DNA of 64,000 bases, taken from a virus. The notes under the pieces were generated by a model. The model worked only from the letters and a program-made list of their open reading frames with translations, ran no database searches and was not told the origin of the DNA. The stretch's first letter is position 1. The number at the start of each line of letters is the position of its first letter. The position numbers and the translations under genes were made by a program. The stretch lies in the IMG/VR virus record IMGVR_UViG_3300045988_110279. One strand, written 5' to 3'. This document shows positions 857 through 19,380 of the stretch, one piece after another.

Positions 857-859
857 ATT

Positions 860-4871: not shown

Positions 4872-4874
4872 TTC

Positions 4875-5126
4875 TTAATCCTCGTTTTCTAAATTGATTT
4901 CTCCTATACAGTTACACCGTATCGGAGATTCAAAAACAAATTCATCTCCATATCCAACGATAGTTATTTCTCCATACTTTTTACAATACTCGTCTATCTT
5001 TTCGATTAGACTATTCCAATCTTTCTCTTGCGCTTTTTGTTTTCTAAGTGCCACTTCTTTATAGGCGGTAGCACTCAACCATTGCAACTCCTCATCATTC
5101 AGTTTGTTGAAATCAATATCAACCAT
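4875..5126 (-). CDS. hypothetical protein
   Basis: Track ORF, TAA stop. Confidence 0.55.
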   Translation of the reverse strand: MVDIDFNKLNDEELQWLSATAYKEVALRKQKAQEKDWNSLIEKIDEYCKKYGEITIVGYGDEFVFESPIRCNCIGEINLENED

Positions 5127-5143
5127 CTAAAAATCTCCTTTCT

Positions 5144-5596
5144 TTAATGAAAAATCTCAGCCGGAATTTCACTAAAAACTTGCTTAAATTGCTCCATAGT
5201 CAGTTCTCTTGCCGCTCTCTCAACCCTTTCTTTTGCCCAGTCGCAAACCATTTCGCAGGAAATAAATTTAATTTCATACCCAGTAATGGCGTAGATTTTA
5301 GGCGACCACTCAAATCTTTTTGTATCAGCCATATTTCCAGTTAAAATCATATATTCGCCGGTGGCTTGATTTTCTTCTGACTGTTCAACCCAACATTGAA
5401 CTATATTTTCAACATAGTTTTTTCCAGTTTTAACCGCTTCTTTTTCGGTTCGAGCATTGATTAAAAAGGTAGAAAGCATAATATCATCACGAAATGATAC
5501 CGTAAATTTATAAGGCTTCTTAGAGAAGATACCCTTGCGACCTTCACACCAAAAGGTAACTTGAAAATTAACACGAAATTGTTTTAAGCTTTCCAT
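5144..5596 (-). CDS. hypothetical protein
   Basis: Track ORF, TAA stop. Confidence 0.55.
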   Translation of the reverse strand: MESLKQFRVNFQVTFWCEGRKGIFSKKPYKFTVSFRDDIMLSTFLINARTEKEAVKTGKNYVENIVQCWVEQSEENQATGEYMILTGNMADTKRFEWSPKIYAITGYEIKFISCEMVCDWAKERVERAARELTMEQFKQVFSEIPAEIFH

Positions 5597-5768
5597 TTCT
5601 TTTATCTCCTGTAATAATCTTCAATATAAAATTTCATTTCTTTTTCTGTACTTTGTCTTAATACCGAATAAATAGTGGAAATGTCAAGGCAAGTTCTTTT
5701 AATTAAGAAACGAATGATAGAGTTTTTAAGTTTATTCATCATTTCTTTTACCTCCCTTCCATGGTTAA

Positions 5769-5797
5769 ATGATACCACATTTTCGGGAGAAAGTCAA
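5769..5797 (-). promoter_or_regulatory. sigma-A-type promoter TTGACT-17-TGgTATCAT
   Basis: Minus-strand -35/-10 with exact 17-bp spacer upstream of gene 5144..5596. Confidence 0.6.
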
Positions 5798-5806
5798 GCT
5801 GTCAAG

Positions 5807-5840
5807 TTGCACAAATTTTCAATTCAAAATTGTTGAAAAT
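5807..5840. promoter_or_regulatory. inverted-repeat operator TTGCACAA...TTGTTGAA
   Basis: One member of the repeated TTGCACAA-N-TTGTGCAA family, located just upstream of a -35 element. Confidence 0.5.
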
Positions 5841-5859
5841 GACAATAGAAGAAAAATTC

Positions 5860-5928
5860 GGACCGCGGCGCACGCAAGCGGTCCGCTCAAAATTTTGCAT
5901 AAAAAAATCTCCCCATAAGGGGAGATTT
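5860..5928 (-). terminator. tandem intrinsic terminators (GC hairpin 5860-5884; hairpin 5905-5928)
   Basis: Both stems are followed by T-runs on the minus strand. They lie downstream of gene 5933..6283. Confidence 0.6.
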
Positions 5929-5932
5929 TTCT

Positions 5933-6283
5933 TTAGTTGAGAATTATTGGATATGCCTTGCGAATAACCACCGTAACCATGGCCGGGGGAGTGTCGCACA
6001 AGAAACGATCATTTCTGATAAAACGACCAATTCCCATATTCTGCCACAAAGTCCGGTTTACATCCTCGTATCGTAGGGTATTATACTTGGAAAGTTTGAT
6101 ATGCCAATCATAGATAAAGGAACCATCTTCCGGCATGGTGTAATCTGGCGCCCGCTTATAATTTCTCGTATGCTCTGCGGCTCTGCGTTCAAGGTCATTT
6201 GTCGTACCAATCTTGAGAATATAGCGCCCCTTTTTGTCGATATAATGTCCGACATATAGGAACTCTTTTCCCCTTGTCTGCAA
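5933..6283 (-). CDS. GIY-YIG family nuclease
   Basis: FLYVGHY...YILKIGTTNDLERRAAEH matches the GIY...YIG...R...H(E) motif order. Confidence 0.55.
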   Translation of the reverse strand: MQTRGKEFLYVGHYIDKKGRYILKIGTTNDLERRAAEHTRNYKRAPDYTMPEDGSFIYDWHIKLSKYNTLRYEDVNRTLWQNMGIGRFIRNDRFLCDTPPAMVTVVIRKAYPIILN

Positions 6284-6339
6284 ACTAACTATAACTTGCC
6301 TCTTTTCTGGTAGGGCCGGGGTAGGCCGACCCTACCCCG

Positions 6340-6657
6340 TTATTTCTTCGGCTTACGCTTTTGCACAAGCGTCAACTCGAAACTATCCCCACCAATAGAA
6401 AACGCAATCTGTCTTTCCTTGTTAGTAATAGACAAGTCAGCGATAGAGAATTGACTGTTTTTTTCCAAAAACTCTGCCAATTCCGCAATTATACCGCCTT
6501 TCGTGGCGTTTGGCTTGCGTTGCCGTGTAGTGAACTTATATGCGGTTGGCTGTTTGCGCGTTCCAGCATGGGCAAACTTTTGAGCGATTTTCGCCTTTTC
6601 TGGCGGTAAATCGTATTCAGTCTTTTTATCAGCCTCTACCGCCTTATCATAGGCCAA
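6340..6657 (-). CDS. hypothetical protein
   Basis: Track ORF, TAA stop. GC hairpins flank it at 6302-6338 and 6762-6795. Confidence 0.5.
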   Translation of the reverse strand: MAYDKAVEADKKTEYDLPPEKAKIAQKFAHAGTRKQPTAYKFTTRQRKPNATKGGIIAELAEFLEKNSQFSIADLSITNKERQIAFSIGGDSFELTLVQKRKPKK

Positions 6658-6795
6658 TAAATCTGCCTCCTCTTCCGGCGTTAATTGCAGGGCTTTATAC
6701 CTTGCAATCCGTTCAGCGTCACTAATGCGACTGGATATAATATCACCCCCATATTATAAGTTAGGGCGGGGATTTTCACCCCGCCCTATACGGGG

Positions 6796-7206
6796 TTACG
6801 CCATCTTAAAGAGGGACTTGCCCTTCTTCTCCGTGCAGACTACTCGACCATCGAGTTTCAACTGCCGCACAAGAGCGGCGACCTTCTGGTTAGAATAGGC
6901 CGTCAGATCAGGAATAGCCTTAAAAATTTCCGTGCAGGTCACGCCATCGGTATCGGCGTCCAGACCAGCCAGATACTCCATAATCTGCTCCTTAAAGTTT
7001 TCGTTCTCCTGCTGGGTGGGAGTCAGCTTCTTGTCACCGCTGGAGCTATTCTTCTTACGCAGAAGCTCCAGCTCATGGTCAATGACAGTAATGGCCACCT
7101 CGATGGTAGTGCCATACTTTACCTCGCCGTCAGTCAAGAGGGCCTTAATGTCCTCAAAGCGCTGGGCCTTGGTAATGCGGATTTTCTTCTCGTCCATAAT
7201 ATACAT
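6796..7206 (-). CDS. hypothetical protein (possible C-terminal winged-helix)
   Basis: Track ORF. C-terminus reads KVAALVRQLKLDGRV. Confidence 0.5.
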   Translation of the reverse strand: MYIMDEKKIRITKAQRFEDIKALLTDGEVKYGTTIEVAITVIDHELELLRKKNSSSGDKKLTPTQQENENFKEQIMEYLAGLDADTDGVTCTEIFKAIPDLTAYSNQKVAALVRQLKLDGRVVCTEKKGKSLFKMA

Positions 7207-7245
7207 CCTTTCTGGTTTTTAGGACTGTCCTTGTCCTTTGATTAT

Positions 7246-7446
7246 ATTGTACCACACTATTTGGTACTTGTCAAGAGGTTTTTCAAACTTTTTTCAAGAA
7301 CTTTTGCTCTTTACTTGTTTGCCCTCTCAACCTCCCTTATAGTGTAACACACTTTGGAAAGTTTGTCAAGCCCTTTTTATTTAATTTTCAAGGTGCATTG
7401 CCTTGTTTTCTGTACTTATTATAGCACATCTTCAAAGGCTTGTCAA
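7246..7446 (-). promoter_or_regulatory. three tandem leftward promoters (P1 7246-7274, P2 7341-7369, P3 7418-7446)
   Basis: P1 is TTGACA-17-TACAAT, P2 is TTGACA-17-TACACT, P3 is TTGACA-17-TATAAT. All are on the minus strand. A 15-codon leader ORF with an AGGGAGG RBS lies between P2 and P1. Confidence 0.55.
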
Positions 7447-7553
7447 GAGATTCTTGAAAGATTTTTGAGAAATTCGCTGTCGCTGTCTGCCGTTCGTCTC
7501 TCTCACTTTCTGAATGTATTTTACCACAAGCAAAAGCAGATTGCAAGCGTCAA

Positions 7554-7632
7554 ATTGCACAAAAAATCTGAATTTTGGGAGAAAGTTTTTGTGCAGAATT
7601 TTACACAAAACGGAGCTGAAATTTTTGTGCAA
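7554..7632. promoter_or_regulatory. operator-like inverted repeats TTGCACAA / TTGTGCAG / TTGTGCAA
   Basis: Three half-sites of the same family. Confidence 0.5.
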
Positions 7633-7651
7633 CATTTACAAAGAAAAACTC

Positions 7652-7718
7652 GGGTCGCGCCGTTCCTGCGCGACCCGCTCAAATTTTGTATAAAAAAAGA
7701 AGGGCCGAAGCCCTTCTT
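7652..7718 (-). terminator. tandem intrinsic terminators
   Basis: gggtcgcgc...gcgcgaccc and aagaagggc-cgaa-gcccttctt, each followed by a T-run on the minus strand. Confidence 0.6.
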
Positions 7719-7900
7719 AACAGAAAATACAGTTATCCAGAAAATCAAACAGGTGTTCATCCTCAATGGGAACATTTACCAGCATATTTCCATCTTCGTC
7801 AATATCATCATGACACCATCCCATACGCTCAATAATTTGAATTGCCATATAAACGGCATCTGCGCACAGAGAAGAGGTATATACAGTTTTTGTTACCATT
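7717..7900 (-). CDS. small hypothetical protein (60 aa)
   Basis: Internal start MVTKT with a GAGGAGG RBS, inside track ORF 7717..8052. Confidence 0.4.
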
Positions 7901-8092
7901 TTATTCCTCCTCGAAATCATCAACTCCATATTGTCTCTGATATTCGTCACAGTCGAACCATGGCTCACCCAAAGAGCAACAAAGTGATTCCGTGTCAAAA
8001 TCTGGGCAGATAGTATCATAGATTTGTTCTGGGTCCATGCCTTCCTCGGCATAATGCGGGCAACTCCACCGCATACAATGAACTTGAGACAT
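7901..8092 (-). CDS. small acidic Cys-rich protein
   Basis: Track ORF of 63 aa. Confidence 0.4.
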   Translation of the reverse strand: MSQVHCMRWSCPHYAEEGMDPEQIYDTICPDFDTESLCCSLGEPWFDCDEYQRQYGVDDFEEE

Positions 8093-8119
8093 ATTATTTC
8101 CTTTCTGTCGGGCGGGGCT

Positions 8120-8911
8120 TTAAGCCCCTACCCGGATAGTTGGAATTGAACGCATACTTGCGGAAAGTTGACGCTGAAAATCTGTCATAGGTGGAAACTC
8201 TCTCTTATTCTCATACAGGGCCTTTCTCATGGGCTTATGCTGACGCATACAATACCACATGATTTCCGCCTCAATGAGAACATCCTCAAGCCCCGTATGA
8301 CTTTCTTCAAAATCGGTATTGCCAGAAATAAACCGCCACACGATTTCCGCAGTCTTACGAGGAACGCCATTGGCCTGGACATATCCGTTTTCCTGACAGA
8401 ATTTCTTATAAGTGGGCATATTGCAGATAACATCCTGTGTCATCTTCATAATGTCCCAGATTTCCACACTATCAAACGGGAACCAGTAGCGGAACTTGGA
8501 GCAAGTGACCCATCGTTGAGTGACCCGCAGAGCGTTATCGTCAAACCGGGCATTATAAGCAGCTACCTCTTTAATCCCGTATCGCTCGATGGTATCAAGC
8601 ATAGCCTGCCGGATTTCATAAGTTGTAGCCATCTTACGAGTGCCGGCCCGCAATTCTTCGACATAGCGGGGGATTTTCCAATTATAATAGGCCGTCCGCA
8701 TGAGATCCCGCTCATCGTTGAAAATGTCCCTATTTACAAAACTGGCAGTTTCATAAATATTGCCCTTGGTATCCACTACCGCCCATCCGCAATCATAGAC
8801 AAGAACGCAACTCATATCCATGCGGGCTTTGCCGTTTTCGTCAGTTTCAGTCAGTGTGTTAGCAGTTTCAGTATCAACCACCAAAACATAGTGTCTACGC
8901 TTATCAATCAT
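8120..8911 (-). CDS. DEDDh 3'-5' exonuclease (DnaQ/RNase T-like)
   Basis: Exo I motif VVDTETAN, Exo II motif AYNARFDDNAL and Exo III motif HTGLEDVLIEAEI. Confidence 0.75.
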   Translation of the reverse strand: MIDKRRHYVLVVDTETANTLTETDENGKARMDMSCVLVYDCGWAVVDTKGNIYETASFVNRDIFNDERDLMRTAYYNWKIPRYVEELRAGTRKMATTYEIRQAMLDTIERYGIKEVAAYNARFDDNALRVTQRWVTCSKFRYWFPFDSVEIWDIMKMTQDVICNMPTYKKFCQENGYVQANGVPRKTAEIVWRFISGNTDFEESHTGLEDVLIEAEIMWYCMRQHKPMRKALYENKREFPPMTDFQRQLSASMRSIPTIRVGA

Positions 8912-8943
8912 AATCTTTGACTTCCTTTCCTCTTGTTGAGTTT

Positions 8944-8972
8944 ATTATAGCACATATCATGCTTGATGTCAA
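8944..8972 (-). promoter_or_regulatory. promoter TTGACA-17-TATAAT
   Basis: Exact consensus on the minus strand upstream of the exonuclease gene. Confidence 0.65.
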
Positions 8973-9137
8973 GAGGAAAAGGAAATTTTTATTGCGATTT
9001 ACTGCAAGCTACTGGGCATTAGAACGGCCTATTCTAACGGCGTTCACTCGACTTACGACACAATATAAATTTACTTCCTTTACTTTCTAAGAGTTCGCGA
9101 CCTCTTGATTTCTTGGCCTTCCCCTCTTGACAAATAT

Positions 9138-9166
9138 ATAATACCATACTTTCGGGATAATTACAA
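9138..9166 (-). promoter_or_regulatory. promoter TTGTAA-17-TATTAT
   Basis: Cassette promoter. A short leader ORF with an AAAGGAAG RBS follows it. Confidence 0.4.
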
Positions 9167-9175
9167 GATGGCAAA

Positions 9176-9207
9176 TTGCACAAAATTTGCAAGCCAAAAT
9201 TGTGCAA
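9176..9207. promoter_or_regulatory. inverted repeat TTGCACAA-N16-TTGTGCAA
   Basis: Best-formed copy of the operator family. Confidence 0.55.
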
Positions 9208-9228
9208 CATCGACAAAAACAAAAACTC

Positions 9229-9300
9229 GGCTCGCCGCGTGCGCCAGCGAGCCGCCCAAACGATATTAAAGAGTAAAAATAAGAGGGCCGAAGCCCTCTT
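9229..9300 (-). terminator. tandem intrinsic terminators
   Basis: ggctcgc...gcgagcc and aagagggc-cgaa-gccctctt with T-runs on the minus strand. Confidence 0.6.
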
Positions 9301-9487
9301 AATATCCAAGATATTCTTTATTAATAATCTCGTCAAGCCAATAGCTCAAATCTTCAAGCGAAATATCGTCATCAATTTCATTGTCGGCCATAACCTGATC
9401 AATTTGACCAATGAGAATGGACGCATTTTTCAATACTTGTCGCTCTTCCTCGCTGAGGATAAGCCTATTAACCTTTCTAATCTTCAT
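9299..9487 (-). CDS. small acidic hypothetical protein
   Basis: Track ORF of 62 aa ending at the terminator. Confidence 0.5.
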   Translation of the reverse strand: MKIRKVNRLILSEEERQVLKNASILIGQIDQVMADNEIDDDISLEDLSYWLDEIINKEYLGY

Positions 9488-9527
9488 TTACAAAACTTCC
9501 TTTCTTATTTTAAGATTGACTGGTGGA

Positions 9528-9992
9528 TTACTCTACCAGTCGCCATAAGGCCGTAGGTAAATCTTCATGCGGTTCGATTGTTTCTCCTAAATGCCAACCA
9601 TCCCGCACACTTTTATTATCGTCAATCAAAATAAAATTGCTAACCCCCGGCTCGAAGTATTTTCGCACACAGTTTGCTTTTGTTGTGCCATATTCCACAA
9701 GGTGGACTTTATGTGCGGGGAAGTTGTATTTTGCAAGCCAAGTGCGCTTTGCATCACGGACAGCGGTTTTATATGAGTTAGAACTGTCTTTTGCAAGCCA
9801 ACTGATAACCCGAATTTCCCAGCCCTGCTCAATAAGTTTATTGAGAACGGTATTCAATTCTTCCATATCGCAAAGAGGTTTAGCGACTGTATATGGATAG
9901 GGGTTTTCATTCATTAAATCTTTCAGCCATCCATCTACGCCGTACAGGTCAGCGATTGTTCCATCCATATCAAAGCAGAGCATCTTTTTCAT
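9528..9992 (-). CDS. HAD-superfamily 5'-nucleotidase-like phosphatase
   Basis: N-terminal CFDMDGTIADL (the DxDGT motif I). Confidence 0.55.
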   Translation of the reverse strand: MKKMLCFDMDGTIADLYGVDGWLKDLMNENPYPYTVAKPLCDMEELNTVLNKLIEQGWEIRVISWLAKDSSNSYKTAVRDAKRTWLAKYNFPAHKVHLVEYGTTKANCVRKYFEPGVSNFILIDDNKSVRDGWHLGETIEPHEDLPTALWRLVE

Positions 9993-10024
9993 TTTGATTT
10001 ACTTCCTTTCTTTAGGTTGATTAA

Positions 10025-10053
10025 AGTATATCAGATTTCGGGATAGAAAACAA
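10025..10053 (-). promoter_or_regulatory. promoter TTGTTT-17-TATACT
   Basis: Cassette promoter upstream of gene 9528..9992. Confidence 0.4.
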
Positions 10054-10061
10054 GAGGCAAA

Positions 10062-10093
10062 CTGCACAAAATTTCGGCTGGAAAATTGTGCAA
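10062..10093. promoter_or_regulatory. inverted repeat CTGCACAA...TTGTGCAA
   Basis: Operator family copy. Confidence 0.5.
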
Positions 10094-10114
10094 CTTCTAC
10101 AAAAGAGAAAATTC

Positions 10115-10193
10115 GGCGCGCCACGCACGTTAGCGCGCCGCCGAGAAGCCTATTCAAAAAATGGGATAAAAAAGAGGGCCGAAGCCCTCTTTT
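10115..10193 (-). terminator. tandem intrinsic terminators
   Basis: ggcgcgc...gcgcgcc and aagagggc-cgaa-gccctctt. Confidence 0.6.
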
Positions 10194-10653
10194 ATCTTTC
10201 ACATATATTTGCAAGAAATCTTGCAGAAAGTTTAACCATGTCATGGACAGATTCTTCGTTATTGCTATTTTTATAGCAAATAAAACCAACCTGGTCGCCA
10301 TTCACAAGAATTGGTGTAATAAACATACTTTCCCATTTTGTCGCCGAACTGCGAATATCAATCCAGTCATCGGGAACTCTTGTAATTCCAAAGGAACGCG
10401 GCCCGCATAAAATTCCATCATTGTCAAAAATAGCCGCGGCGATTCCGTTAGATGAAAGGGCATTTTGCATTTGTTTAGCGTAAGAGGAAAATTCTCCCAT
10501 TATAGAATATTTCTTAAAAACTACGCCGCCATCTTCTTCAAGAAAAATCTCTAATGGGTCGCCTTCTCTAATATGAAGGCTTCTACGGATTTCCTTTGGA
10601 ATTACTATCCGGCCCAAATCATCAATACGGCGCACAATTCCAGTAGCTTTCAT
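10192..10653 (-). CDS. AbrB/SpoVT-family transcriptional regulator (N-terminal swapped-hairpin domain plus C-terminal GAF-like domain)
   Basis: MKATGIVRRIDDLGRIVIPKEIRRSLHIREGDPLEIF matches the AbrB/SpoVT N-domain. Confidence 0.75.
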   Translation of the reverse strand: MKATGIVRRIDDLGRIVIPKEIRRSLHIREGDPLEIFLEEDGGVVFKKYSIMGEFSSYAKQMQNALSSNGIAAAIFDNDGILCGPRSFGITRVPDDWIDIRSSATKWESMFITPILVNGDQVGFICYKNSNNEESVHDMVKLSARFLANICER

Positions 10654-10705
10654 TTTTATCTGCGGGAGTGCAAGATTTATAGTCTTGCACTCCCTTCCTC
10701 CATTC

Positions 10706-11098
10706 TTAATCCAGTTCTTTCAACATCCGTTCGAGGTCAGCTTTAGTACCACCCAACTCAAGCGTAAGAATAATTTCCGTTACGGCATTTTTCTCCCAGT
10801 CGCTAACTTCCCGCATGGCCTTTTTCTTCTCGTTCTCCATAGCGGGGTAAATACAATCCTGGCAAGCCTCTACCAGCCGGTCATTATATCTGCGGAAACT
10901 CATCCCCTTGTTTTTAACCTCCGAAAGAAGTTCGTCGTTAAGGGCTTTTACCGCCTGCTTAACTTTCTCCTGCATGATTTTACACTCTGTCTCATAAGCG
11001 GAAAAGGTTTCATGGACAGCCTGCCTCTTGATTTCAGCCTTTACTCCAACTTCCTTTTCAATATACTCCCGAACAACCTTACTAACACGCATTTCCAA
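10706..11098 (-). CDS. hypothetical protein
   Basis: Track ORF. Confidence 0.5.
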   Translation of the reverse strand: MEMRVSKVVREYIEKEVGVKAEIKRQAVHETFSAYETECKIMQEKVKQAVKALNDELLSEVKNKGMSFRRYNDRLVEACQDCIYPAMENEKKKAMREVSDWEKNAVTEIILTLELGGTKADLERMLKELD

Positions 11099-11144
11099 AA
11101 CTTCCTTTCTTAATTTTAATTTTTATTTATCGGGGTCGCCCCTT

Positions 11145-11180
11145 CCATGGTCTTATTGTACCATAGTTGGGGCGATTTGT
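11145..11180 (-). promoter_or_regulatory. promoter TTGACA-17-TACAAT
   Basis: Minus strand reads ggggTTGACAaatcgccccaactatggTACAAT. Confidence 0.6.
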
Positions 11181-11187
11181 CAACCCC

Positions 11188-11340
11188 TTACATCAAAGTT
11201 TTTGCAAGATACGCAAACATTAAAATCTCCGCCGCAAACATGATTTCAAGTCCTATGCAATCTCTTTCAATAGCGGCTACAAATTGCCATACCAGACATA
11301 GAACAAAAGCAATCAGAATTATCATGGTAAAAGTTGTCAT
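11188..11340 (-). CDS. small membrane protein (~50 aa)
   Basis: Internal start MTTFTMIILIAF with a GGGGTGAG RBS. Confidence 0.4.
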   Translation of the reverse strand: MTTFTMIILIAFVLCLVWQFVAAIERDCIGLEIMFAAEILMFAYLAKTLM

Positions 11341-11344
11341 ATAC

Positions 11345-11602
11345 TCACCCCGCAAAGGAAACTTCCGCAAAGTTGATATTGAAACGCTCCCATTCACTTT
11401 CCATACCTAACATCATATCATGGAAAAGGTCATCACGATTTTCATATCCATCTTCTTCCAGAATAGCCTCCCATTCTCCATCGTCATATTGATTTTCCAG
11501 ATAATCCAAAGCAGACTTGCGGGCGGCGATGGTATTAGACGCTACGCAGATAGGTTTATCGTCGTATCCGTCCGTGACCAAAATCATTTTCTTTTCTTCC
11601 AT
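11345..11602 (-). CDS. acidic hypothetical protein
   Basis: Start MEEKKM with RBS AAAGGAAAG, TGA stop. Confidence 0.45.
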   Translation of the reverse strand: MEEKKMILVTDGYDDKPICVASNTIAARKSALDYLENQYDDGEWEAILEEDGYENRDDLFHDMMLGMESEWERFNINFAEVSFAG

Positions 11603-11655
11603 GATTTTTTCTTTCCTTTCTTTCGAGGTGTTTCTGTCTCCCTCTTTCTGATAAT

Positions 11656-11684
11656 AATATACCACAGGCAAAGCAGAAAGTCAA
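11656..11684 (-). promoter_or_regulatory. promoter TTGACT-17-TATATT
   Basis: Cassette promoter. Confidence 0.45.
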
Positions 11685-11713
11685 GCGATTTTAGGAAAAA
11701 ATCTTTCGTCAGA

Positions 11714-11745
11714 TTGCACAACAATTCGAGCCTAAAATTGTGCAA
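11714..11745. promoter_or_regulatory. inverted repeat ATTGCACAA...TTGTGCAA
   Basis: Operator family copy. Confidence 0.5.
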
Positions 11746-11767
11746 ATTGCCTCTTGATAAAAAATTC

Positions 11768-11835
11768 CGGCCGCGCCTGTGGTGCACGGCCGGGCGAACA
11801 AATAAAAAAAAAGAACCTCCTGAATTTCAGGAGGT
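11768..11835 (-). terminator. tandem intrinsic terminators
   Basis: cggccg...cggccg and acctcctg-aattt-caggaggt. Confidence 0.55.
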
Positions 11836-11875
11836 CATTAATTTCTGCATACCAACAACTCCCTTTCTTTTGAGA

Positions 11876-12106
11876 AGTCAATCGGCATTTTCAACAATCT
11901 TTAATCCGTTTGCTTGGATAATTTTCATAGATTCTTCAAGCGAGGAATCAACCGATCCGCAGTCAATACAGATATATTTTCTACCATCTTTTACCATAGT
12001 AGTGAAATAGTATTCCTAACCGGAAGTAAGTCCCATTTGTTCACGCAAACGAATCGGAATCATAATTCTACCACTTGAATCTAATTTGCGAGAGAAAGTA
12101 GTTTCT
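11876..12106 (-). CDS. AbrB/MazE-like swapped-hairpin DNA-binding protein with one in-frame TAG
   Basis: MQETTFSRKLDSSGRIMIPIRLREQMGLTSG(TAG)EYYF... The frame is complete only if TAG is sense. No obvious SD. Confidence 0.4.
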
Positions 12107-12175
12107 TGCATTTTGATAAATAAATTCTAGTGACCTAGGCTCGTGCGAAAAACGACTCCATCACGGGAATCGCCG

Positions 12176-12313
12176 ATTTAGAACAATCGGAAGGAACATT
12201 TACCACTCGCAAGGCATTTTCTGGCAGAACTGAGACATAGGACAATTTTACAAGAATCCTAGTTCAAACAGAACTCCAAAATAACCGCAAGCGCTTTCAG
12301 CACTTCTAAGGTC
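12176..12313 (-). CDS. small Cys-rich protein (45 aa, one TAG)
   Basis: RBS AAAGGAG 8 nt before the ATG. Confidence 0.3.
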
Positions 12314-12516
12314 ATTAGAAAAACTCCTTTCTTTATTTTTCTATAATTATTATAATATATTTTTTTGAAAAAATCAATAGGGCCGGCATTACGCCAGCCC
12401 TAATCTCTGCAACCAAACCAGATGGTATTTACCAATGTGAAGTAGAACTGTGCCATATCCCTTATCCGTCCAGACAGTGGAGCCGATAGGATATGTGTGC
12501 GGTAAACGCTCAATAC

Positions 12517-12732
12517 TCACTTTAGTTCCACCTCCTCGAAAGCTCCAATTTTTAGCAGATAATTATATAAGGCTCTATCTTGCTTGTCACCGGTATTAAA
12601 ATCAAGTGTACGAACACAGCCGGTAACATTGGAATTGAGAGGATGACCCAAACACCAACCAGCCATATTACAAATTGTGTTTCCAAACTCCGCAGATTTT
12701 TCTACACTTTCAAATTTAATAACAGCAATCAT
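12517..12732 (-). CDS. hypothetical protein
   Basis: Track ORF of 71 aa. Confidence 0.45.
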   Translation of the reverse strand: MIAVIKFESVEKSAEFGNTICNMAGWCLGHPLNSNVTGCVRTLDFNTGDKQDRALYNYLLKIGAFEEVELK

Positions 12733-12755
12733 ATTTATTCCTCCTTTTTATCATG

Positions 12756-12786
12756 GGGAGTGGAGATTTATGGCCTCCACTCCCGC
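12756..12786. promoter_or_regulatory. intergenic hairpin gggagtggag...ctccactccc
   Basis: Perfect 10-bp stem between two minus-strand genes, immediately 5' of an RBS. Confidence 0.5.
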
Positions 12787-12794
12787 AAGTTTTC

Positions 12795-13034
12795 TTAACC
12801 ATCTACATAAATGATTAAATTGTTATCTCTTGCCTCAATGCCGGTTACCTGAAGTCCCAGAACCCATTCCTTAGATACCTCGATTACGTCTCCTCCCAGA
12901 GTTATTCTACCATCAGGTAATTCGTGGTAATGAGCTTGGGTATTCTTATTGATAATTTCGAATCCCTCCCCGTCAAAGAACATAGTATCTTCTGCAAGCG
13001 GAGAAAGTAACCAAGCAACCATATCTAAAGTCAT
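12795..13034 (-). CDS. hypothetical protein (79 aa)
   Basis: Start MTLDMVAW with RBS AAAGGAAG. Confidence 0.45.
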   Translation of the reverse strand: MTLDMVAWLLSPLAEDTMFFDGEGFEIINKNTQAHYHELPDGRITLGGDVIEVSKEWVLGLQVTGIEARDNNLIIYVDG

Positions 13035-13086
13035 TTTTTTACTTCCTTTCAAATTCTTTTTGTGGCCTGTCCCTTTGGACAAGTAT

Positions 13087-13115
13087 ATAATAACACATGG
13101 CAAAAGGAATGTCAA
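13087..13115 (-). promoter_or_regulatory. promoter TTGACA-17-TATTAT
   Basis: Cassette promoter. Confidence 0.55.
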
Positions 13116-13143
13116 GTAATTTCGGGAGAAAAACTTTCGTCGA

Positions 13144-13180
13144 ATTGCACAGACTTTCGGTCATATAATTGTTGAAATTG
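13144..13180. promoter_or_regulatory. degenerate operator inverted repeat ATTGCACAG...ATTGTTGAAATTG
   Basis: Family member. Confidence 0.4.
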
Positions 13181-13198
13181 CCGAATAAATAAAAATTC

Positions 13199-13287
13199 GG
13201 GCCGCGGCGCACGCTGGCGGCCCGGCGAAAAGTCAATATGGAAAAGTGCATAAAAATGACTGGCAATCTTTGTGTAGATTGCCAGTC
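13199..13287 (-). terminator. tandem intrinsic terminators
   Basis: gggccgc...gcggccc and gactggcaatc-tttgtgtag-attgccagtc, both with T-runs on the minus strand. Confidence 0.6.
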
Positions 13288-13300
13288 AAGTATTATTCCT

Positions 13301-13534
13301 TTACAGCTCCATGGTTTCCATGAGATAGCCCGTGCCCATCGGCACCTCCCGCAGATTGCTGGGACTTATACGCAACTTATATTTCCTATTGATTTTATTC
13401 GCCGCACTTGTCTTATCTCTTGCTTGGACAATTACTGGTATATGGAGTTTATTCAGAGTGGGCTTATTAAGACTGAAATATCCCATCTCTCTGCGCTTGC
13501 GGCCCATGGCGTCGATATAAGTCCCTCTATACAT
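13301..13534 (-). CDS. small basic protein
   Basis: Track ORF with AGGAGG RBS. Confidence 0.5.
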   Translation of the reverse strand: MYRGTYIDAMGRKRREMGYFSLNKPTLNKLHIPVIVQARDKTSAANKINRKYKLRISPSNLREVPMGTGYLMETMEL

Positions 13535-13547
13535 TTTTTTCCTCCTA

Positions 13548-13700
13548 TTATTTAGTCATGAGAACGAACATATTATATTCGCTGTGCTGTGGGTTTGGCT
13601 CACAGTTATCCGCCACTATATCAGCCCAACTAAGAACTGCCCAGAGTAGGAGAGCGGCACAAATGCCGCCTCCTATCCGCTTAATAATTCTCATTTCCAT
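13548..13700 (-). CDS. small membrane protein (50 aa)
   Basis: MEMRIIKRIGGGICAALLLWAVL with a GGAGG RBS. Confidence 0.35.
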   Translation of the reverse strand: MEMRIIKRIGGGICAALLLWAVLSWADIVADNCEPNPQHSEYNMFVLMTK

Positions 13701-13993
13701 TTCTTTGCCTCCTGTTCTTTAACCCATTCAGTACCGATTGTATCTCCGACCATAGCAATCTTATATTCGTCTTCGCTTGCAATTCTGGTATGCAGATTGC
13801 TATTGATAAACTTTCTATTGATATAAGCCCAGTGTGGCATATAGGCCACTCGCATGGCATTAAAAGCATCCAGGTCTAAGATGATGCCGTCCTCTACCTC
13901 TGCGGAACACACATTCATCTTATACCGCAAAAGTTTAATAAATTCACGCTTTCTAAAAGTAGGCCCAACGAACCACTTAATATAATTGTTCAT
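13691..13993 (-). CDS. hypothetical protein
   Basis: Track ORF with RBS GGGGAGAAAGG. Confidence 0.5.
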   Translation of the reverse strand: MNNYIKWFVGPTFRKREFIKLLRYKMNVCSAEVEDGIILDLDAFNAMRVAYMPHWAYINRKFINSNLHTRIASEDEYKIAMVGDTIGTEWVKEQEAKKWK

Positions 13994-14038
13994 AGTCTTT
14001 TATCCTTTCTCCCCGTATAGCCGTTAGGTCAGCTTCTT

Positions 14039-14185
14039 TTTAATCTACGATTTCTCCACTGGATAAATCTACAATCCAATGATTGGGATTGACTATCTCG
14101 TGACTGGCTTTCCATCTTGCCATTGAAAGGGTGGATGGTTCATAATAGCGCATTTTCTCATTGGCTAAAACCTGTAATTGATACA
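14039..14185 (-). CDS. small hypothetical protein (48 aa)
   Basis: RBS GAAAGGGG 7 nt before the ATG. Confidence 0.3.
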
Positions 14186-14260
14186 TATAGTATACCCCTT
14201 TCTTTTAATTATTATAACCCTGCCTTGCCTTGTGTTTTGCAAGGCAGGGTTTATAAACTG

Positions 14261-14634
14261 TTATCCTCTAATTTCTTCTTCTTGGGTCTTTGTCGCCCAA
14301 TCAAAAGAGGTACGAATATCGGAAGGTCTGCGGAATTGCTCTGCTTCGGCCTCTGTCCCGCCTAATGCCATAGCATAGGCTTTCCAGTCAACCGTTCCTT
14401 TTGCGGTAGTTTCTTTATATACCACCGCTTTCGCCTTACCCTGCATTTGTACCGTGCCATATAGATAACTTGTTTTGTCCGTAGCCTTAAAAGCCTTACC
14501 TAATCTGGAAAATAGCTCTTTAGCCTTAGCCTTAGCTGCTTTCTCCGCCGCCTCCGCCGCAGACTTAGCCATCTTAGCGGCCATATACTCCATAATAATG
14601 GCTCGATCTTCATTGGTAAAATCAATCTTTTTCA
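14261..14634 (-). CDS. hypothetical protein with Ala/Lys-rich coiled coil (possibly Gam-like)
   Basis: Internal start MKKIDFTNEDR within track ORF 14261..14698. The family assignment is speculative. Confidence 0.4.
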
Positions 14635-14688
14635 TACTCTTTTGACTCCCTTTCTTTTTGTGGTGTGGTTCTCTTTTGTTCTGTCTGT

Positions 14689-14717
14689 ATTGTATCAAAC
14701 CTTTAGCAGTTTGTCAA
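14689..14717 (-). promoter_or_regulatory. promoter TTGACA-17-TACAAT
   Basis: Exact consensus on the minus strand. Confidence 0.65.
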
Positions 14718-14842
14718 TACCTTTTTTGAAATTTTTTAATTTTCAAAGTGCCGTGCTTTTGTCTCTGTCCTACTGGACAAGTCCAGTTTACCACCAAAAT
14801 GTTCACTTGTCAATAGTTTTTTTGAAATTTCTTTCTCTCTCT

Positions 14843-14873
14843 TTTGCACAAAATAAATAACATCTTGTTGTGC
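14843..14873. promoter_or_regulatory. inverted repeat TTGCACAA...TTGTGCAG
   Basis: Operator family copy. Confidence 0.5.
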
Positions 14874-15085
14874 AGTTTGCATAAACCCTTTACGCGCGCG
14901 TATTCCTTTAGGGGTGTGCTTTCTTGCTTTCGTACTTTAACGAGTGAAAGAGGCCAACTACACTTCAATACTTTACCATGTGAAAGAGGGGCGTGTATTT
15001 TGGGAAAAACTGGAAATTTTTTTGTAAAATCGTTCTGCCACGCCATTTCAAAATCTAAATCGACTTTTCAATCTCAATAACGAAA

Positions 15086-15113
15086 AAGAGAGAAGAACTC
15101 ACTTCTTCTCTCC
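15086..15113 (-). terminator. intrinsic terminator
   Basis: gagagaag-aactcac-ttcttctc plus a T-run on the minus strand. Confidence 0.55.
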
Positions 15114-15130
15114 GCATTTACAATATAATC

Positions 15131-15370
15131 TTATCCATCGTCGGTTGCTTCAAAATTAAAAATCAAATTATATCCATCCTCAGTTTCTATCATTTCATAT
15201 CCTTTTAAGATATATCCATCCTCTAGTTTAATATTAGTCGCATCAGATCTCCACATTGTAGGAATATACTCTAGCCTTGGATAACGATCGTTCTCCTTTC
15301 CGCAAGCAGTTAACAACAATACGATTAATATTATGTTAATTATAAAGCTGATACTTCTTCCCAATTTTAT
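15131..15370 (-). CDS. lipoprotein (signal peptide with LTAC lipobox)
   Basis: TTG start after a GGAGG RBS gives LIKLGRSISFIINIILIVLLLTACG... It overlaps the 3' end of the PTH2 gene. Confidence 0.45.
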   Translation of the reverse strand: MKLGRSISFIINIILIVLLLTACGKENDRYPRLEYIPTMWRSDATNIKLEDGYILKGYEMIETEDGYNLIFNFEATDDG

Positions 15371-15773
15371 CAATTTCTTCCGCCTCCATTGGCCTAAATC
15401 CAATACACGTCAAAGTCCCTTCCGGGCCTTCACGCTCTAACTCCGTCCTACAAGCATCATAAATAAGCCAGTAGTCTTTATTCTCTTCCCATCCTAATTC
15501 TTTAGCCATTGCAACAGCTTTTAGCAAATCATTCTTATTCTTCGCTCTACAAACTACTTTGGTCTCCGCTTCCGCTATCCAATTATGGAATAAGTCTCTA
15601 TCGAGGCTTATTCCTATATGATACATAAGACCGTCTCTTTCTTTAACAACTTCTTTACTTCCCCAATATAACTTTTCCAAAAGAAAAGCAATAGAAGCAT
15701 GGGAAACTTGTGCGGCAAGTTTCCCTGGAGACATATTTAAGTCTCGCCTCGCAATAATTAATTGCTTGAACAT
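15336..15773 (-). CDS. peptidyl-tRNA hydrolase, PTH2 family
   Basis: LIIARRDLNMSPGKLAAQVSHAS... with C-terminal ...TLTCIGFRP...KKYQLYN, resembling PTH2 (KMVLVVRxDLKMGKGKxAAQCSHA). Confidence 0.65.
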   Translation of the reverse strand: MFKQLIIARRDLNMSPGKLAAQVSHASIAFLLEKLYWGSKEVVKERDGLMYHIGISLDRDLFHNWIAEAETKVVCRAKNKNDLLKAVAMAKELGWEENKDYWLIYDACRTELEREGPEGTLTCIGFRPMEAEEIDKIGKKYQLYN

Positions 15774-16525
15774 TTTTCCAAAACCTCCAAGAAAATTCTA
15801 AAATTGCGGGAATTGCGGTTTGGAATCGCAAAATAGATATTTGGAATATTATAATTGCGGGCTGCGCTTACGAGCAAGGTGGCGACCGTTGATGGATCTT
15901 GCATAAAAACACCACAGCCCCAGGCTCCCGCGATTAAATTTTCCACTCCCTTAGCCTCGGCAATCCGATACATAAAATTAATTCTCTCTTCCATTATCCT
16001 ATTGTTTAGAGAAAGAGGAACTTGCTGATAAGTATGTGCTGTTCTATAATTAGGAGAAGCACAAGTAATTACATCAGCTAATTTTCTACCATTGTCTTTT
16101 TCAAAGACTACATCAGGAGTATAGATAGCTCTATCAAGATATAGGGCTCGATTTAGTCTCTGTCTATTCCATGCGTAATAAGTATCATCAAAAGCAAGAA
16201 GAATAGGATAAAGGTTGCTTTCGTGACACAATGCCTCTTCTTGTGCAGAGCTGCCTCCAAGGAAGTAACCACCTGGATGTTTATAGCTTGCATAATTTAA
16301 GATTGCGGTCTTGCTCCGATCGGTTAAACCAAATAGACAGGATACGCTATCTTGGTCTTTAAGATAAAAGGTATTATGGTAGGTTTCTTGCGGTTTTAGC
16401 GGAAAAGGAAGATTGGGGCCAAAAATTTCAGAGTTTATAATTGCGCGATCTGTATCTTCCTTGAGTCTCACTTTAATGTCTGCGTAATGCGATTGCGCGT
16501 GTTGTTTGAGCTCTTCTCGTTTCAT
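15758..16525 (-). CDS. macrodomain protein, bacterial PARG-like (DUF2263/TIGR02452-like)
   Basis: HPGGYFLGGSSAQEEALC resembles the PARG GGG-x6-8-QEE signature. Confidence 0.5.
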   Translation of the reverse strand: MKREELKQHAQSHYADIKVRLKEDTDRAIINSEIFGPNLPFPLKPQETYHNTFYLKDQDSVSCLFGLTDRSKTAILNYASYKHPGGYFLGGSSAQEEALCHESNLYPILLAFDDTYYAWNRQRLNRALYLDRAIYTPDVVFEKDNGRKLADVITCASPNYRTAHTYQQVPLSLNNRIMEERINFMYRIAEAKGVENLIAGAWGCGVFMQDPSTVATLLVSAARNYNIPNIYFAIPNRNSRNFRIFLEVLEKCSSN

Positions 16526-16559
16526 TTGCAGTTTCCTTTCTTCCGTGCGGTTGGGCAGA

Positions 16560-16748
16560 AGTGGATAATTTAATTATCCCAATCTTCAAATAAAGTGTGT
16601 AAACTATTTGTTTCCGCCGCTAATCTCTTTAAATATTCTTTAAGCATTTTATTTTCTTTAACTTTAATTGCATAATCGCAAGTATTGTCGCAGTCTGGTG
16701 TGTACTACCGACCGAATCTATTATAACAATAATCAATGCAAGGACACA
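16560..16748 (-). CDS. small Cys-rich protein (one TAG)
   Basis: MSKMCPCIDYCYNRFGR(TAG)YTPDCDNTCDY... Confidence 0.25.
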
Positions 16749-16750
16749 TT

Positions 16751-17098
16751 TTACTCATATTTACATCCATTCATTCTACAGTCTATTGTACATTGCCCTG
16801 AAGCCCCTTCACAAGGAATAGCATCAGGATAGTATTCGAAATAAGACGAGGTTAATAGAACTTCATACCCAAGTTCCCGCAGTATTCTCTCTGCGACATA
16901 CCTATCTCTTAACTTAATCCATTCTTCTCTGTTTACTTTTGTTTCTCTATCTATTTGATTTGAGGTGTCTACATCCACAGTTATAGTTCCATCACTAATA
17001 GAGATGGCCTCATCCAACCTTCTAAACCATTTTTTAAAGGGATTTTGAATATGCAATATATCTTCAGCATATTTGTCAAAATCTTCCGAAAATTTCAT
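16751..17098 (-). CDS. hypothetical protein
   Basis: Internal start MKFSEDFDKY of track ORF 16751..17191, placed so as not to overlap FolD. Confidence 0.4.
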   Translation of the reverse strand: MKFSEDFDKYAEDILHIQNPFKKWFRRLDEAISISDGTITVDVDTSNQIDRETKVNREEWIKLRDRYVAERILRELGYEVLLTSSYFEYYPDAIPCEGASGQCTIDCRMNGCKYE

Positions 17099-17121
17099 TA
17101 TCTTTGTGCCTGTTTCGCTAA

Positions 17122-17885
17122 CTATAAACAATTTTTCATCAACCCCAATCTTGTTAATAGACCTACTCCTCCGGGGACAGGAGTTGACCATACCTTATTT
17201 TTACTTGCAATTTCATCAATTTCTACAAAGTCTCCAAGAATAATTCCTGCTTCATTTCTACGAATACCAACATCTATAACAATAGCATTAGGACAGGCTT
17301 CTCTTGTTAAGCTAAATTTTCCTACCGCAGAGATAATTAAATCCGCTTGTCTTGTTAAATAGAGTTTTGTGTTTATATCTGTTTTACTGTGACACATTGA
17401 TACGGTCATATTTCTATCTAGAAGAGCTTTAGCCATTGGCTTTCCTACAATATCGCTTCTTCCCAAAACAACAGCAGATTTACCTTCGTAGTTAAAGCCA
17501 CATTTATCCAAATAATCTATAATTCCTCTTACTGTTGCTGGAGTAATATTACTCATTGGATTTAATCCATCTGCATCTTTAGAAACAGGTATTTGATTAT
17601 AATTGAAATCAATCCCGTCTGCTATTGGCATTTGGACTATTACAGCATCCCAATCTTTCGCATGGTCTAAAAATAACTTTAATTCTACTGAACTATTAGC
17701 TCTAAATACTTCTGCTTTCCAACCAAGAGCATTAAAGTCTTTTATTTTATTACGAATATAAATTTGATTTGCGGGATCCTAGGCCGTCGCGTCGATAATC
17801 ATGAGAGAAGGAATTGCAGATCTATCAACCAGCAATTTCTCTATCTCTTGTTTAAAATACTCTTTTATATTAATCTATTTCGTCA
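17122..17885 (-). CDS. folD: bifunctional methylenetetrahydrofolate dehydrogenase/cyclohydrolase FolD; two in-frame TAG codons
   Basis: The C-terminal 169 aa (track ORF) match FolD: VVLGRSDIVGKPMA...VIDVGI...TPVPGGVG. The N-terminus DATA(TAG)DPANQIYIRNK and VIVQMPIADGID is recovered only by reading TAG as sense. Confidence 0.7.
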
Positions 17886-18280
17886 TTCTCTGGTTCTAGC
17901 CTCCATGGATCATCAGTATAATAATCTATCATATCATAAAAAGATATACCCTACTCGCTGTCTACTTCTAACACCTAATGAGGTAAGCACTATAATTCGT
18001 ACTAAAAATCTTTATTTATATGATGTGTTGTATAAATATGGACAGCATAAGGTCTCCCGTCTGTAATTCCCTATATATCCCACATATTAATAATGTTCTA
18101 TTGAAATGTCTCTTGGGCATACTATGGAGATACAGCGATACATACAATTAAAATATTAAAATAATACTATGCGTTTTTTGGTAGTGCATTGTAAGGTTCA
18201 TCGAAGAACATTTCTTTATATTCCTCCTACTATTTTCTATTTATATTATAGCATTATAATTTTAATTAATCAAATAAGAT

Positions 18281-18309: not shown

Positions 18310-18333
18310 ATGAGTATAAAAGGAGATGACAGT

Positions 18334-19380
18334 ATGATAAAATTAGATTATACTATTGAGTCTCCAGAAGAGCGAAAAGCGCTTGTCGAAAAAATAATCG
18401 AAGAAAATCCGGATCTTACTCCGAGTTATTTAGAAATATTAGCAGATTATTTAGTTCTATGTATGGAAAAGCAAGAGAAGAAAGAAAAGAATATATTAAC
18501 AGATAATAGAATGGCTACTGTTAATAAAAGAGAATGTTCTTTCGAAGGGCTTGCGTCATAGATGGAAAATGGCGAGGATGGCATTTATGGTTTAATGTCA
18601 GAAAATAAAAATGTTATATTTTAGCCAAAGATTTCTATTACACAGAAAGATTTAGATACTATACCATGTTTAAAATAGTTGAGAGAAACCATTAATGTCT
18701 GGGAGGGCGCTTTAAAACGCGCTGCTGGGACAAAATAGGCATATATGATGAAAAAAGCATTAATAGAGATGCGAAAAGATTAGTATATCATTAAGCAAGC
18801 ATATTAGAAACCTATTATACCATGTAAATTAACGAGATCCGTAAGAACTCATATTCCTCTTGATGATTAGAGTTATCTTAATGGACAGGAGGTAGTGGTA
18901 AAGGGTATTTCGCTAATGGACGCCAATGTTGTTTCTGCTATTTTATGCAATTATTCAAAATTAAAAGAGGATAGTTATGATTAGTTTGAGGGAGATACAT
19001 GGTATTTAATTCAATCATTTGAAGAAATATGTGATAAAGCTCTCAAAGACTTTCCAATCTATTTACGAATTGTTGAACTCAAAATTGATAAAAAGTAGAA
19101 TAACGAAATATAGGAAATATTAAAAAATGAGTTTGGTAAAACATATAGCGTTGAATATATTTCTAGCCTATGGAGAAATAAGATTCCTAAACTCATTGCG
19201 GAAGAGGCTTTAGAAGATTTTTTACGTTGGTAGTATAAACAAAAAGGATACCCAATGAAAAAATGTTCTAAGTGTGGGCAATTAAAGCCAGCCCATAATC
19301 AATTCTTTTCAAAGAATAAGACAAGTAAGGATAATTTGTATAGTATCTGTAAGCGCTGTCGCAATAAGAAAAGAGGTTGA
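18334..19380 (+). CDS. hypothetical protein with C-terminal CxxC...CxxC zinc ribbon; ~13 TAG codons
   Basis: RBS AAAGGAGA then ATG. In frame with track ORF 18169..18561, ending at TGA 19378. Confidence 0.5.

Follow-up and report, generated by a model that had tools for sequence, protein, structure and literature searches.

Bacteria depend on an essential housekeeping peptidyl-tRNA hydrolase, Pth1, which hydrolyses peptidyl-tRNA and N-acetyl-aminoacyl-tRNA. The Pth2-type (PTH2) proteins that are encoded by some large phages are predicted to catalyse the same class of reaction, but they are unrelated to Pth1 in fold and sequence and belong with the Pth2 enzymes of archaea and eukaryotes. Iyer et al. 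2021 (PMC7824862) described PTH2 across group 2/3 jumbo phages, and proposed that it hydrolyses peptidyl-tRNA in ribosome rescue after tRNA damage and in tRNA recycling. GenBank records annotated as peptidyl-tRNA hydrolase exist for Clostridioides phage phiCD211, Xanthomonas phage XacN1, Sinorhizobium phage phiM12 and its relatives, Enterococcus phages and Salicola phage SCTP-2. Here we describe a PTH2 gene in a 64,000-nucleotide stretch of viral DNA (IMG/VR record IMGVR_UViG_3300045988_110279; "the window" below is this whole stretch), which comes from a gut phage that reads the stop codon TAG as glutamine. The gene is located on the minus strand at 15336..15773 and encodes 145 amino acids from ATG to TAA without any in-frame TAG, and a GGAGG sequence is found at 15788..15784, 10 nucleotides 5' of its ATG. 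The interval 15131-15773 consists of two minus-strand open reading frames (ORFs), this one and that of a small lipoprotein which overlaps its 3' end. An earlier annotation, made from the DNA letters and their ORFs only (the sequence-only reading), had seen in this gene a PTH2-family hydrolase that is unusual in a phage and that might rescue peptidyl-tRNAs dropping off at poorly suppressed TAG codons.

The PTH2 homology of the 145-amino-acid protein is solid. It matches Pfam PF01981 over all 115 profile positions (E=1.2e-22) and scores 80.8 bits where 23 is the cutoff, so the family assignment of the sequence-only reading, which had quoted the stretch LIIARRDLNMSPGKLAAQVSHAS of this ORF and called for a profile search, is borne out. 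Six crystal and nuclear magnetic resonance (NMR) structures of Pth2 match the product by sequence, with the N-terminal motif GK-LAAQV-HA and the C-terminal motif D-A-x-x-T-E in alignment. An AlphaFold model built with 24 homologues reached a pLDDT of 85.2 and a pTM of 0.80, and in a Foldseek search against the PDB its best 14 matches were all Pth2 with probability 1.0, at target-normalised TM scores of 0.52-0.85 (0.76-0.85 for crystal chains and 0.52 for one NMR entry). The proteins of Sulfolobus solfataricus (1XTY), Thermoplasma (Ta0108, 1RLK) and Pyrococcus (1WN2) and the human PTRH2/Bit1 (1Q7S) have the same fold with probability 1.0 and TM scores of 0.76-0.85, and the archaeal and eukaryotic enzymes share with the window protein the N-terminal GK(L/I)AAQ(V)xHA and the C-terminal D-A-x-x-T-E motifs. 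Across the 24 homologues D106 and T110 are invariant and K18 is nearly so, and in the alignment these three residues fall on the GK..AAQ and D-x-G-x-T motifs that are conserved in the solved structures; in the Sulfolobus enzyme Lys18 and Asp86 are, as we take it from mutagenesis work, residues of the active site. The identity to the archaeal and eukaryotic proteins is 22-32%, and the window protein differs from them by an insertion of 25-30 amino acids and in coming from a phage whose bacterial host already possesses a Pth1. The insertion follows helix 1, is modelled as a helix extension and a beta-hairpin with a pLDDT of 67-77, and varies in length among the homologues from 25 to about 90 amino acids. 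The phage protein is a member of a divergent bacterial and phage subfamily with an insertion and not an orthologue of the archaeal housekeeping enzyme.

That this genome reads through UAG, as the sequence-only reading also stated, is confirmed, and the phage is recoded from TAG to Gln (genetic code 15). The ORFs of at least 100 amino acids cover 44% of the window; counting TAG as a sense codon brings their coverage to 93% and gives a contiguous plus-strand late block at 18160-56669 with a sigma-factor-like gene, a portal gene and virion protein genes. One ORF of 2913 amino acids (34695-43436, plus strand) contains 101 in-frame TAG codons and the next one, of 1305 amino acids, has 26. The stops of the 33 ORFs examined are TAA in 29 cases and TGA in four, and never TAG. 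At the positions facing TAG codons of the window, the homologous proteins of relatives show 309 Gln, 234 TAG and 74 Glu, while the background frequency of Gln is 2.4%; TAG therefore encodes glutamine. The use of TAG is quite unevenly distributed: in 15 late genes it makes up 254 of the 513 Gln-type codons, and in the minus-strand arm (112-17098, 18 ORFs) none of 72. No tRNA and no RNA family were found with ARAGORN and Rfam in the 64-kb window, which leaves no candidate there for a suppressor tRNA, a ribozyme or another RNA. A suppressor tRNA, if the phage encodes one, must therefore lie in the remaining roughly 80 kb of the genome of about 146 kb.

The PTH2 gene is the middle one of three minus-strand genes. 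Upstream of it, at 15758..16525 (minus strand), is a gene for a 255-amino-acid macrodomain ADP-ribose glycohydrolase of the microbial PARG (TIGR02452) type (PF10021, E=6.6e-26; TIGR02452, 171.7 bits against a cutoff of 50), with a stop that overlaps the PTH2 start by 16 nucleotides. Its product aligns with the bacterial PARG structures 5zd* (Deinococcus) and 3sig (Thermomonospora), and the GG..GGxxAQEE signature and the GAWGCGVF loop are kept; over the catalytic signature GGG-X6-8-QEE, HPGGYFLGGSSAQEE of the window protein aligns with NPGGGFLGGAQAQEE of the Deinococcus PARG 5zdg. Downstream is the lipoprotein gene, and a hairpin resembling an intrinsic terminator (15087..15113, minus strand, 11-bp stem and T run), 18 nucleotides past the lipoprotein stop, closes the unit. 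The unit has TAG at none of its 12 Gln codons (P=2.7e-4 at the late-gene rate), and is therefore translatable by the unmodified host apparatus.

We think it somewhat probable that the gene encodes an active Pth2-type esterase, made early from this standard-code-compatible operon, that recycles peptidyl-tRNAs and N-blocked aminoacyl-tRNAs to sustain translation. The analysis shows the membership in the family, the fold, the conservation of the catalytic residues, the anatomy of the operon, its freedom from TAG and the distribution of the gene; the enzymatic activity, the early timing and the physiological substrate we infer. The enzyme would cut the ester bond between the nascent peptide, or an N-blocked amino acid, and the 3'-terminal adenosine of the tRNA, and the free tRNA would return to the pool. 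Translation of the unit would need no change to the host apparatus and would probably take place early in infection, and PTH2 would supplement the Pth1 of the host as an accessory enzyme, as it apparently does in other large phages. Its use may be to keep tRNAs and ribosomes available when peptidyl-tRNAs pile up, be it from drop-off, from stalled ribosomes or from an attack by the host on tRNA. TAG codons that are poorly decoded would then, through drop-off, be one source of substrate among several and not the reason for the gene, and PTH2 would stand outside the code-change machinery as a protein that the phage can do without. If PTH2 only tops up the host Pth1, it is a further example of large phages that have their own genes for the maintenance of translation.

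The gene is not as unusual as the sequence-only reading held. PTH2 is rare among phages in absolute terms, yet it is already known: besides the published jumbo phages, a tblastn search through 50,697 GenBank phage records found it in 34, each of at least 130 kb, with 28-37% identity over 87-99% of the query, and there are at least 151 IMG/VR loci with a PTH2 of this subfamily. A large protein collection contains 2258 PTH2 homologues at E<=1e-5. The window product matches phrog_1866, which is still labelled "unknown function", and many of the GenBank homologues are named "hypothetical", so the assignment has a value for annotation. In phiCD211 (gp325), XacN1 (ORF295), phiM12 and Enterococcus phage H1 (H1_150) the protein belongs to the same family and is an accessory gene of phages of at least 130 kb. 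The known PTH2 genes of large phages are found near RtcB, tRNA or folate-pathway genes, whereas the one in the window shares an operon with the PARG-like and lipoprotein genes. In phiCD211 RtcB is 1.1 kb from PTH2; in phage H1 the gene is flanked by DHFR and FolD (the latter 1.3 kb away) with a tRNA-Glu gene 3.4 kb downstream, and neither region has a recoding signal. In one of the IMG/VR loci that we call group 3 (L041) the order is an RNA ligase, an AAA_33 kinase/HD protein, a predicted metallophosphoesterase (recognised at motif level, with no Pfam match), a small zinc-ribbon protein and then PTH2, an order reminiscent of the classical tRNA-repair set. In five loci (L038, L066, L080, L082, L083) PTH2 is flanked by arrays of 10-21 tRNA genes, and there are six tRNA genes in L063. 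This tRNA-centred context in phage loci without a recoding signal supports a truly tRNA-directed function of PTH2 and, with it, the published proposal of tRNA recycling and rescue.

To see how the gene is distributed with respect to recoding, the recoding signal was scored in the flanks of 139 PTH2 loci; these were ordered by how similar they are to the query, and a single lineage dominates among them. A signal was present in 32 of them. Nearly all of these come from a single broad family, which has late genes, FolD and further neighbours in common with the window. L112 is a member of this family, and so are L139, L141, L143 and L145, which were fetched from the PARG side and scored separately; the PTH2 identity goes down to about 43%. 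Some 60 group 3 loci with a PTH2 that is 49-58% identical show no recoding signal in a 20-kb flank, but these flanks look early or accessory and do not reach the late genes, so that "not recoded" is provisional for them. Many PTH2 loci from bacteria and metagenome-assembled genomes (MAGs) also lack the signal, as do the PTH2 regions of phiCD211, XacN1 and H1, three cultured phages that are annotated with intact standard-code genes, unlike the recoded phage of the window. The one clearly independent TAG-sense phage with the gene is L066 (193 kb), where a tRNA(CUA), a tRNA-Pro, a tRNA-Gln(CUG) and a tRNA-Gln(UUG) are followed by PTH2 at the end of a 19-tRNA array (9140-10444), with 770 bp between the tRNA-CUA and PTH2. 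The sequence-only reading had suggested co-occurrence with recoding as a check. Within flanks of 4-10 kb, and with no correction for phylogeny, PTH2 does not strictly follow recoding: about 100 loci have the gene and show no recoding signal, it is also present in GenBank phages annotated in the standard code, and some recoded relatives have lost it or carry a broken copy. Two relatives (L001 and L002) have deletions of 9, 17 and 20 nucleotides and a frameshift in the gene, and in three others (L003-L005) an internal deletion of 108 nucleotides removes a core strand with its flanking helices, an allele that 18 contigs share. In the recoded L142, FolD and PARG are present, with no PTH2 within 4 kb. 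The homologues of 92-109 amino acids could have been gene calls cut at in-frame TAG codons, but the DNA alignment shows true deletions and a frameshift. PTH2 is thus useful but dispensable for the recoded family, in contrast to the essential Pth1 of bacteria.

Several observations weigh against an accessory tRNA-recycling enzyme and have to be set beside the other explanations. The product stays below the NCBIfam equivalog cutoffs for archaeal Pth2 (NF003314, 82.2 against 126 bits; TIGR00283, 66.2 against 82 bits), and the insertion after helix 1, modelled at lower confidence, could alter the substrate. In the window the gene is not beside tRNA or RNA-repair genes, and the tRNA context is borrowed from other phages. 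Its neighbours are FolD, an unassigned ORF, PARG and the lipoprotein gene, with no adjacent tRNA-repair cassette of kinase, phosphatase and ligase. A literature search gave no activity assay for any phage PTH2. The retention of PTH2 at 43-100% identity across the recoded family, and its adjacency to tRNA-CUA in L066, would moreover also be predicted by a role linked to recoding. In such a role PTH2 would clear the peptidyl-tRNAs or 50S-peptidyl-tRNA shed at UAG pauses, where a suppressor tRNA-Gln(CUA) competes with release factor 1, and so allow the TAG-rich late translation. The mechanism is plausible, as Pth is known to recycle drop-off products and to free nascent chains in bacterial ribosome quality control. 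The gene is kept in TAG-recoded Clostridia phages of 90-150 kb (L001-L024, L089, L090, L112, L139, L141, L143 and L145), and in L066 it comes directly after tRNA-Pro and two tRNA-Gln genes. In L090 (an uncultured Eubacterium MAG contig of 147,780 bp), where PTH2 is 85% identical, codon 4 is TAG (6002-6013, ATG TTT AAA TAG TTA) at a position that is an invariant Gln elsewhere, and in L112 an in-frame TAG is found inside PTH2 too, so that in these phages the enzyme is made while suppression is active. The codon in L090 is a recent CAA-to-TAG change in an otherwise TAG-free early gene. By the same token the enzyme of L090 and L112 can be made only once suppression works, and is therefore no prerequisite for establishing the new code. 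The recoded family is furthermore essentially one lineage, with L066 as the only clear independent case among the 139 loci, whereas the loci at 49-58% identity and the regions of phiCD211, XacN1 and H1 have the gene without the signal, and in recoded relatives it is deleted, frameshifted or gone from the locus. In the window genome it sits in the TAG-free early block, and termination by release factor 1 at UAG frees the peptide on the ribosome, with no need for Pth. The 136-kb TAG-recoded gut phage phAss-1, which has three suppressor tRNAs, is not among the tblastn matches for PTH2 in GenBank phages. The code-change machinery that was described in the recoded-phage survey of Borges et al. consists of suppressor tRNAs, release factors (release factor 2) and aminoacyl-tRNA synthetases, and the text mentions no hydrolase. 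The window PTH2 is like that machinery in being encoded by a TAG-recoded phage in the part that is readable with the standard code, but it is not among its described components, it is neither specific to nor universal in recoded phages, and there is no suppressor tRNA or release factor near it in the window. We found no paper linking peptidyl-tRNA hydrolase with phage recoding, and consider this explanation unlikely. If it were true that the retention of PTH2, or of PARG and PTH2, reflects a cost of stop-codon reassignment, it would be a new component of natural code switching and would offer an experimental way to measure how recoded phages handle stalled ribosomes. Far less probable still is that the gene is a decaying or repurposed passenger, which has kept the Pth2 fold but lost peptidyl-tRNA hydrolysis and serves for instance as a binding module or acts on another acyl-ribose ester. 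The broken alleles of several relatives, the scores under the equivalog cutoffs and the lineage-specific insertion of variable length would fit with this. The ORF in the window is however intact, with K18, D106, T110 and the whole core conserved; intact alleles are much the commoner form (their clusters have 96-176 member sequences, those of truncated alleles 1-3), and an identity of 43-60% across divergent phages indicates purifying selection.

The recurring pairing of PARG and PTH2 is the most interesting loose end, and suggests a different explanation: that the two genes are a counter-defence pair that jointly reverses what host toxins do to the translation apparatus, in which the PARG-like macrodomain would remove ADP-ribose from modified RNA or protein and PTH2 would hydrolyse N-acetylated or otherwise blocked aminoacyl-tRNAs, or peptidyl-tRNAs stranded by tRNA cleavage. 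Throughout the family the two genes are within about 1 kb of each other, adjacent or with nothing but the lipoprotein gene between them (L141 has one further small ORF there), and this closeness is kept even where the gene order is inverted; to this comes the 16-nucleotide overlap in the window and the intact catalytic signature of the PARG. A PARG homologue is also found about 2 kb or less from PTH2 in L062 and in L103 (a Butyrivibrio MAG), two loci with no recoding signal and with other neighbours that are not shared. In L062 (GC 50%) PTH2 is the C-terminal domain of a 343-amino-acid protein (3819-4850), the N-terminal domain of which (about 190 amino acids) has no Pfam match; the PARG homologue is two genes upstream, and an ORF that resembles a metallophosphoesterase at motif level is directly downstream. 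L140 is a 108-kb contig with no recoding signal; there a PARG homologue of 43% identity comes directly after a 722-amino-acid protein in which a kinase (AAA_33), a metallophosphatase and a T4-type RNA ligase are fused (1772-4777), a hint that RNA-repair neighbourhoods are where this PARG-like subfamily belongs. In XacN1 PTH2 is near a YbiA-like protein and a Nudix hydrolase, which we take to be involved in ADP-ribose processing. It has also been reported that Pth1 reverses the acetylation by TacT (bioRxiv 10.1101/2021.12.20.473312). Against a counter-defence pair stands that PADLOC gave no toxin, antitoxin, defence or anti-defence match for the five neighbourhood genes, the operon genes included, and that outside the family a PARG is absent from the vicinity of most PTH2 loci. 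Of seven PARG homologues sampled, four have PTH2 nearby and all four are from this family, while the other three, which include one family member, lack a PTH2 within 4 kb. The literature search gave no paper joining PARG and peptidyl-tRNA hydrolase in phages. We regard a counter-defence pair as a possible but rather doubtful explanation. It is quite improbable that PARG and PTH2 are a coupled module without which this family of TAG-recoded Clostridia phages could not sustain recoded translation, for instance by stripping ADP-ribosyl and acyl or peptidyl groups off the 3' ends of tRNAs, or off 50S-peptidyl-tRNA complexes that stall and accumulate at UAG; were it so, PTH2 would be a previously unrecognised accessory of natural genetic-code switching.

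The third gene of the unit is real as well. The sequence-only reading had pointed to a lipoprotein gene with an LTAC lipobox overlapping the 3' end of PTH2, and this stands, with a correction of the overlap. The mechanically called ORF is 15131..15403 (minus strand), reaching to a TTG at 15403, and would give an overlap of 68 nucleotides. We set the start at TTG 15373 instead, because a GGAGG (15387..15383) is found 9 nucleotides 5' of it and because the start position is shared with relatives, which begin with ATG or TTG; those of a second clade have an ATG at the position next to it. The gene is then probably 15131..15373 (minus strand), and overlaps the PTH2 3' end by 38 nucleotides in another frame. 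It encodes 80 amino acids, with the signal peptide MIKLGRSISFIINIILIVLLLTA followed by the cysteine and a mature part of about 56 amino acids. The order M-IKLGR-SISFIINIILIVLL-LTAC-GKEND... has a positively charged n-region, a hydrophobic h-region and a lipobox of the form [LVI][ASTVI][GAS]C, as in a predicted signal peptidase II substrate. The second clade (L012-L024), with PTH2 58-61% identical, has a lipoprotein ORF that is 42-47% identical, in the same position and frame relation and with the lipobox LTGC. The Cys, a Pro-Arg and two D/E-G-Y motifs are invariant between the clades, and the lipobox varies as LTAC, LVAC and LTGC around the invariant Cys. That the ORF arose by chance in AT-rich DNA is rejected by this conservation with the lipobox kept, and by gene callers that predicted the gene independently in other assemblies of relatives.

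The lipoprotein family has 31 detectable homologues, all within this phage lineage. A Pfam search of the protein found no domain, and its structure model was poor (pTM 0.32) and too weak for a fold search. The gene is not present in the relatives L003, L010, L011 and L014; in L006 it is shortened by a deletion between its two GAGGATGGATA repeats, and in L017 (10359-11165) a deletion fuses it in frame to the PARG-like ORF, which gives a 268-amino-acid product with a lipoprotein signal peptide. The C-terminal tail of PTH2, EIDKIGKKYQLY, is conserved even in phages without the lipoprotein, and the lipoprotein start therefore looks overprinted on the conserved tail of an older gene, of which it would be a clean example. 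Like the reinfection blockers Llp of phage T5 and Ltp of Streptococcus phage TP-J34, it is a short phage lipoprotein with a signal peptide and a lipobox among early or accessory genes, but no sequence or structural similarity to them was detected, with the window model being of low confidence. A role in blocking reinfection is thus only an analogy.

The MAG binning and the GGAGG ribosome-binding sites point to a host among the Clostridia. The close relatives are on contigs of 139-149 kb, two of which fall into MAG bins of Oscillospiraceae and Eubacterium; PTH2 homologues at a greater distance come from Lachnospiraceae, Butyrivibrio and Christensenella assemblies. Relatives carry YonG/YonD-type domains, which are known from SPbeta-like phages. 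A megablast search with 22 kb against the GenBank phages gave a sole match of 58 bp, to phAss-1, so this phage is itself absent from that collection.

Upstream of the PARG-like gene there is a conserved ORF at 16751..17098 (minus strand, about 116 amino acids from MKFSEDF), without TAG and syntenic in relatives, which has no assigned function and gave no match in a Pfam search. It is preceded by the gene of a FolD-like methylene-tetrahydrofolate dehydrogenase/cyclohydrolase (17098..17889, minus strand), the first gene of the minus-strand arm, which is syntenic with PTH2 throughout the phage family. This FolD-like gene has three in-frame TAG codons, and all ORFs examined downstream on the same strand have none, so the switch between what is readable with the standard code and what needs suppression falls inside one co-oriented string of genes and not only at the strand switch. 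On the other side of that strand switch, the first gene of the late block (18325-19380, plus strand) is sigma-factor-like (phrog_5767, E=1e-38) with an HNH/zinc-ribbon-like C-terminal end, and contains 11 in-frame TAG codons. It is possible that a late transcription factor that itself needs TAG suppression works as a timing gate. Further into the early arm, at 10192-10719 (minus strand), is a gene whose product has an N-terminal domain of antitoxin type that resembles AbrB/SpoVT (phrog_4681, E=4e-20), followed by a C-terminal extension of about 100 amino acids. The window also contains a diversity-generating retroelement (57813-58691, minus strand; 59338-59440; 60047-61897, minus strand, with 60061-60163), with a reverse-transcriptase gene (phrog_1423, E=1e-53), an AAC-rich template repeat of 103 nucleotides and a variable repeat at the 3' end of a 616-amino-acid ORF. 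The core of the variable repeat is 79% identical to the template and deviates from it almost only at template adenines, and both the reverse-transcriptase gene and the 616-amino-acid ORF contain in-frame TAG.

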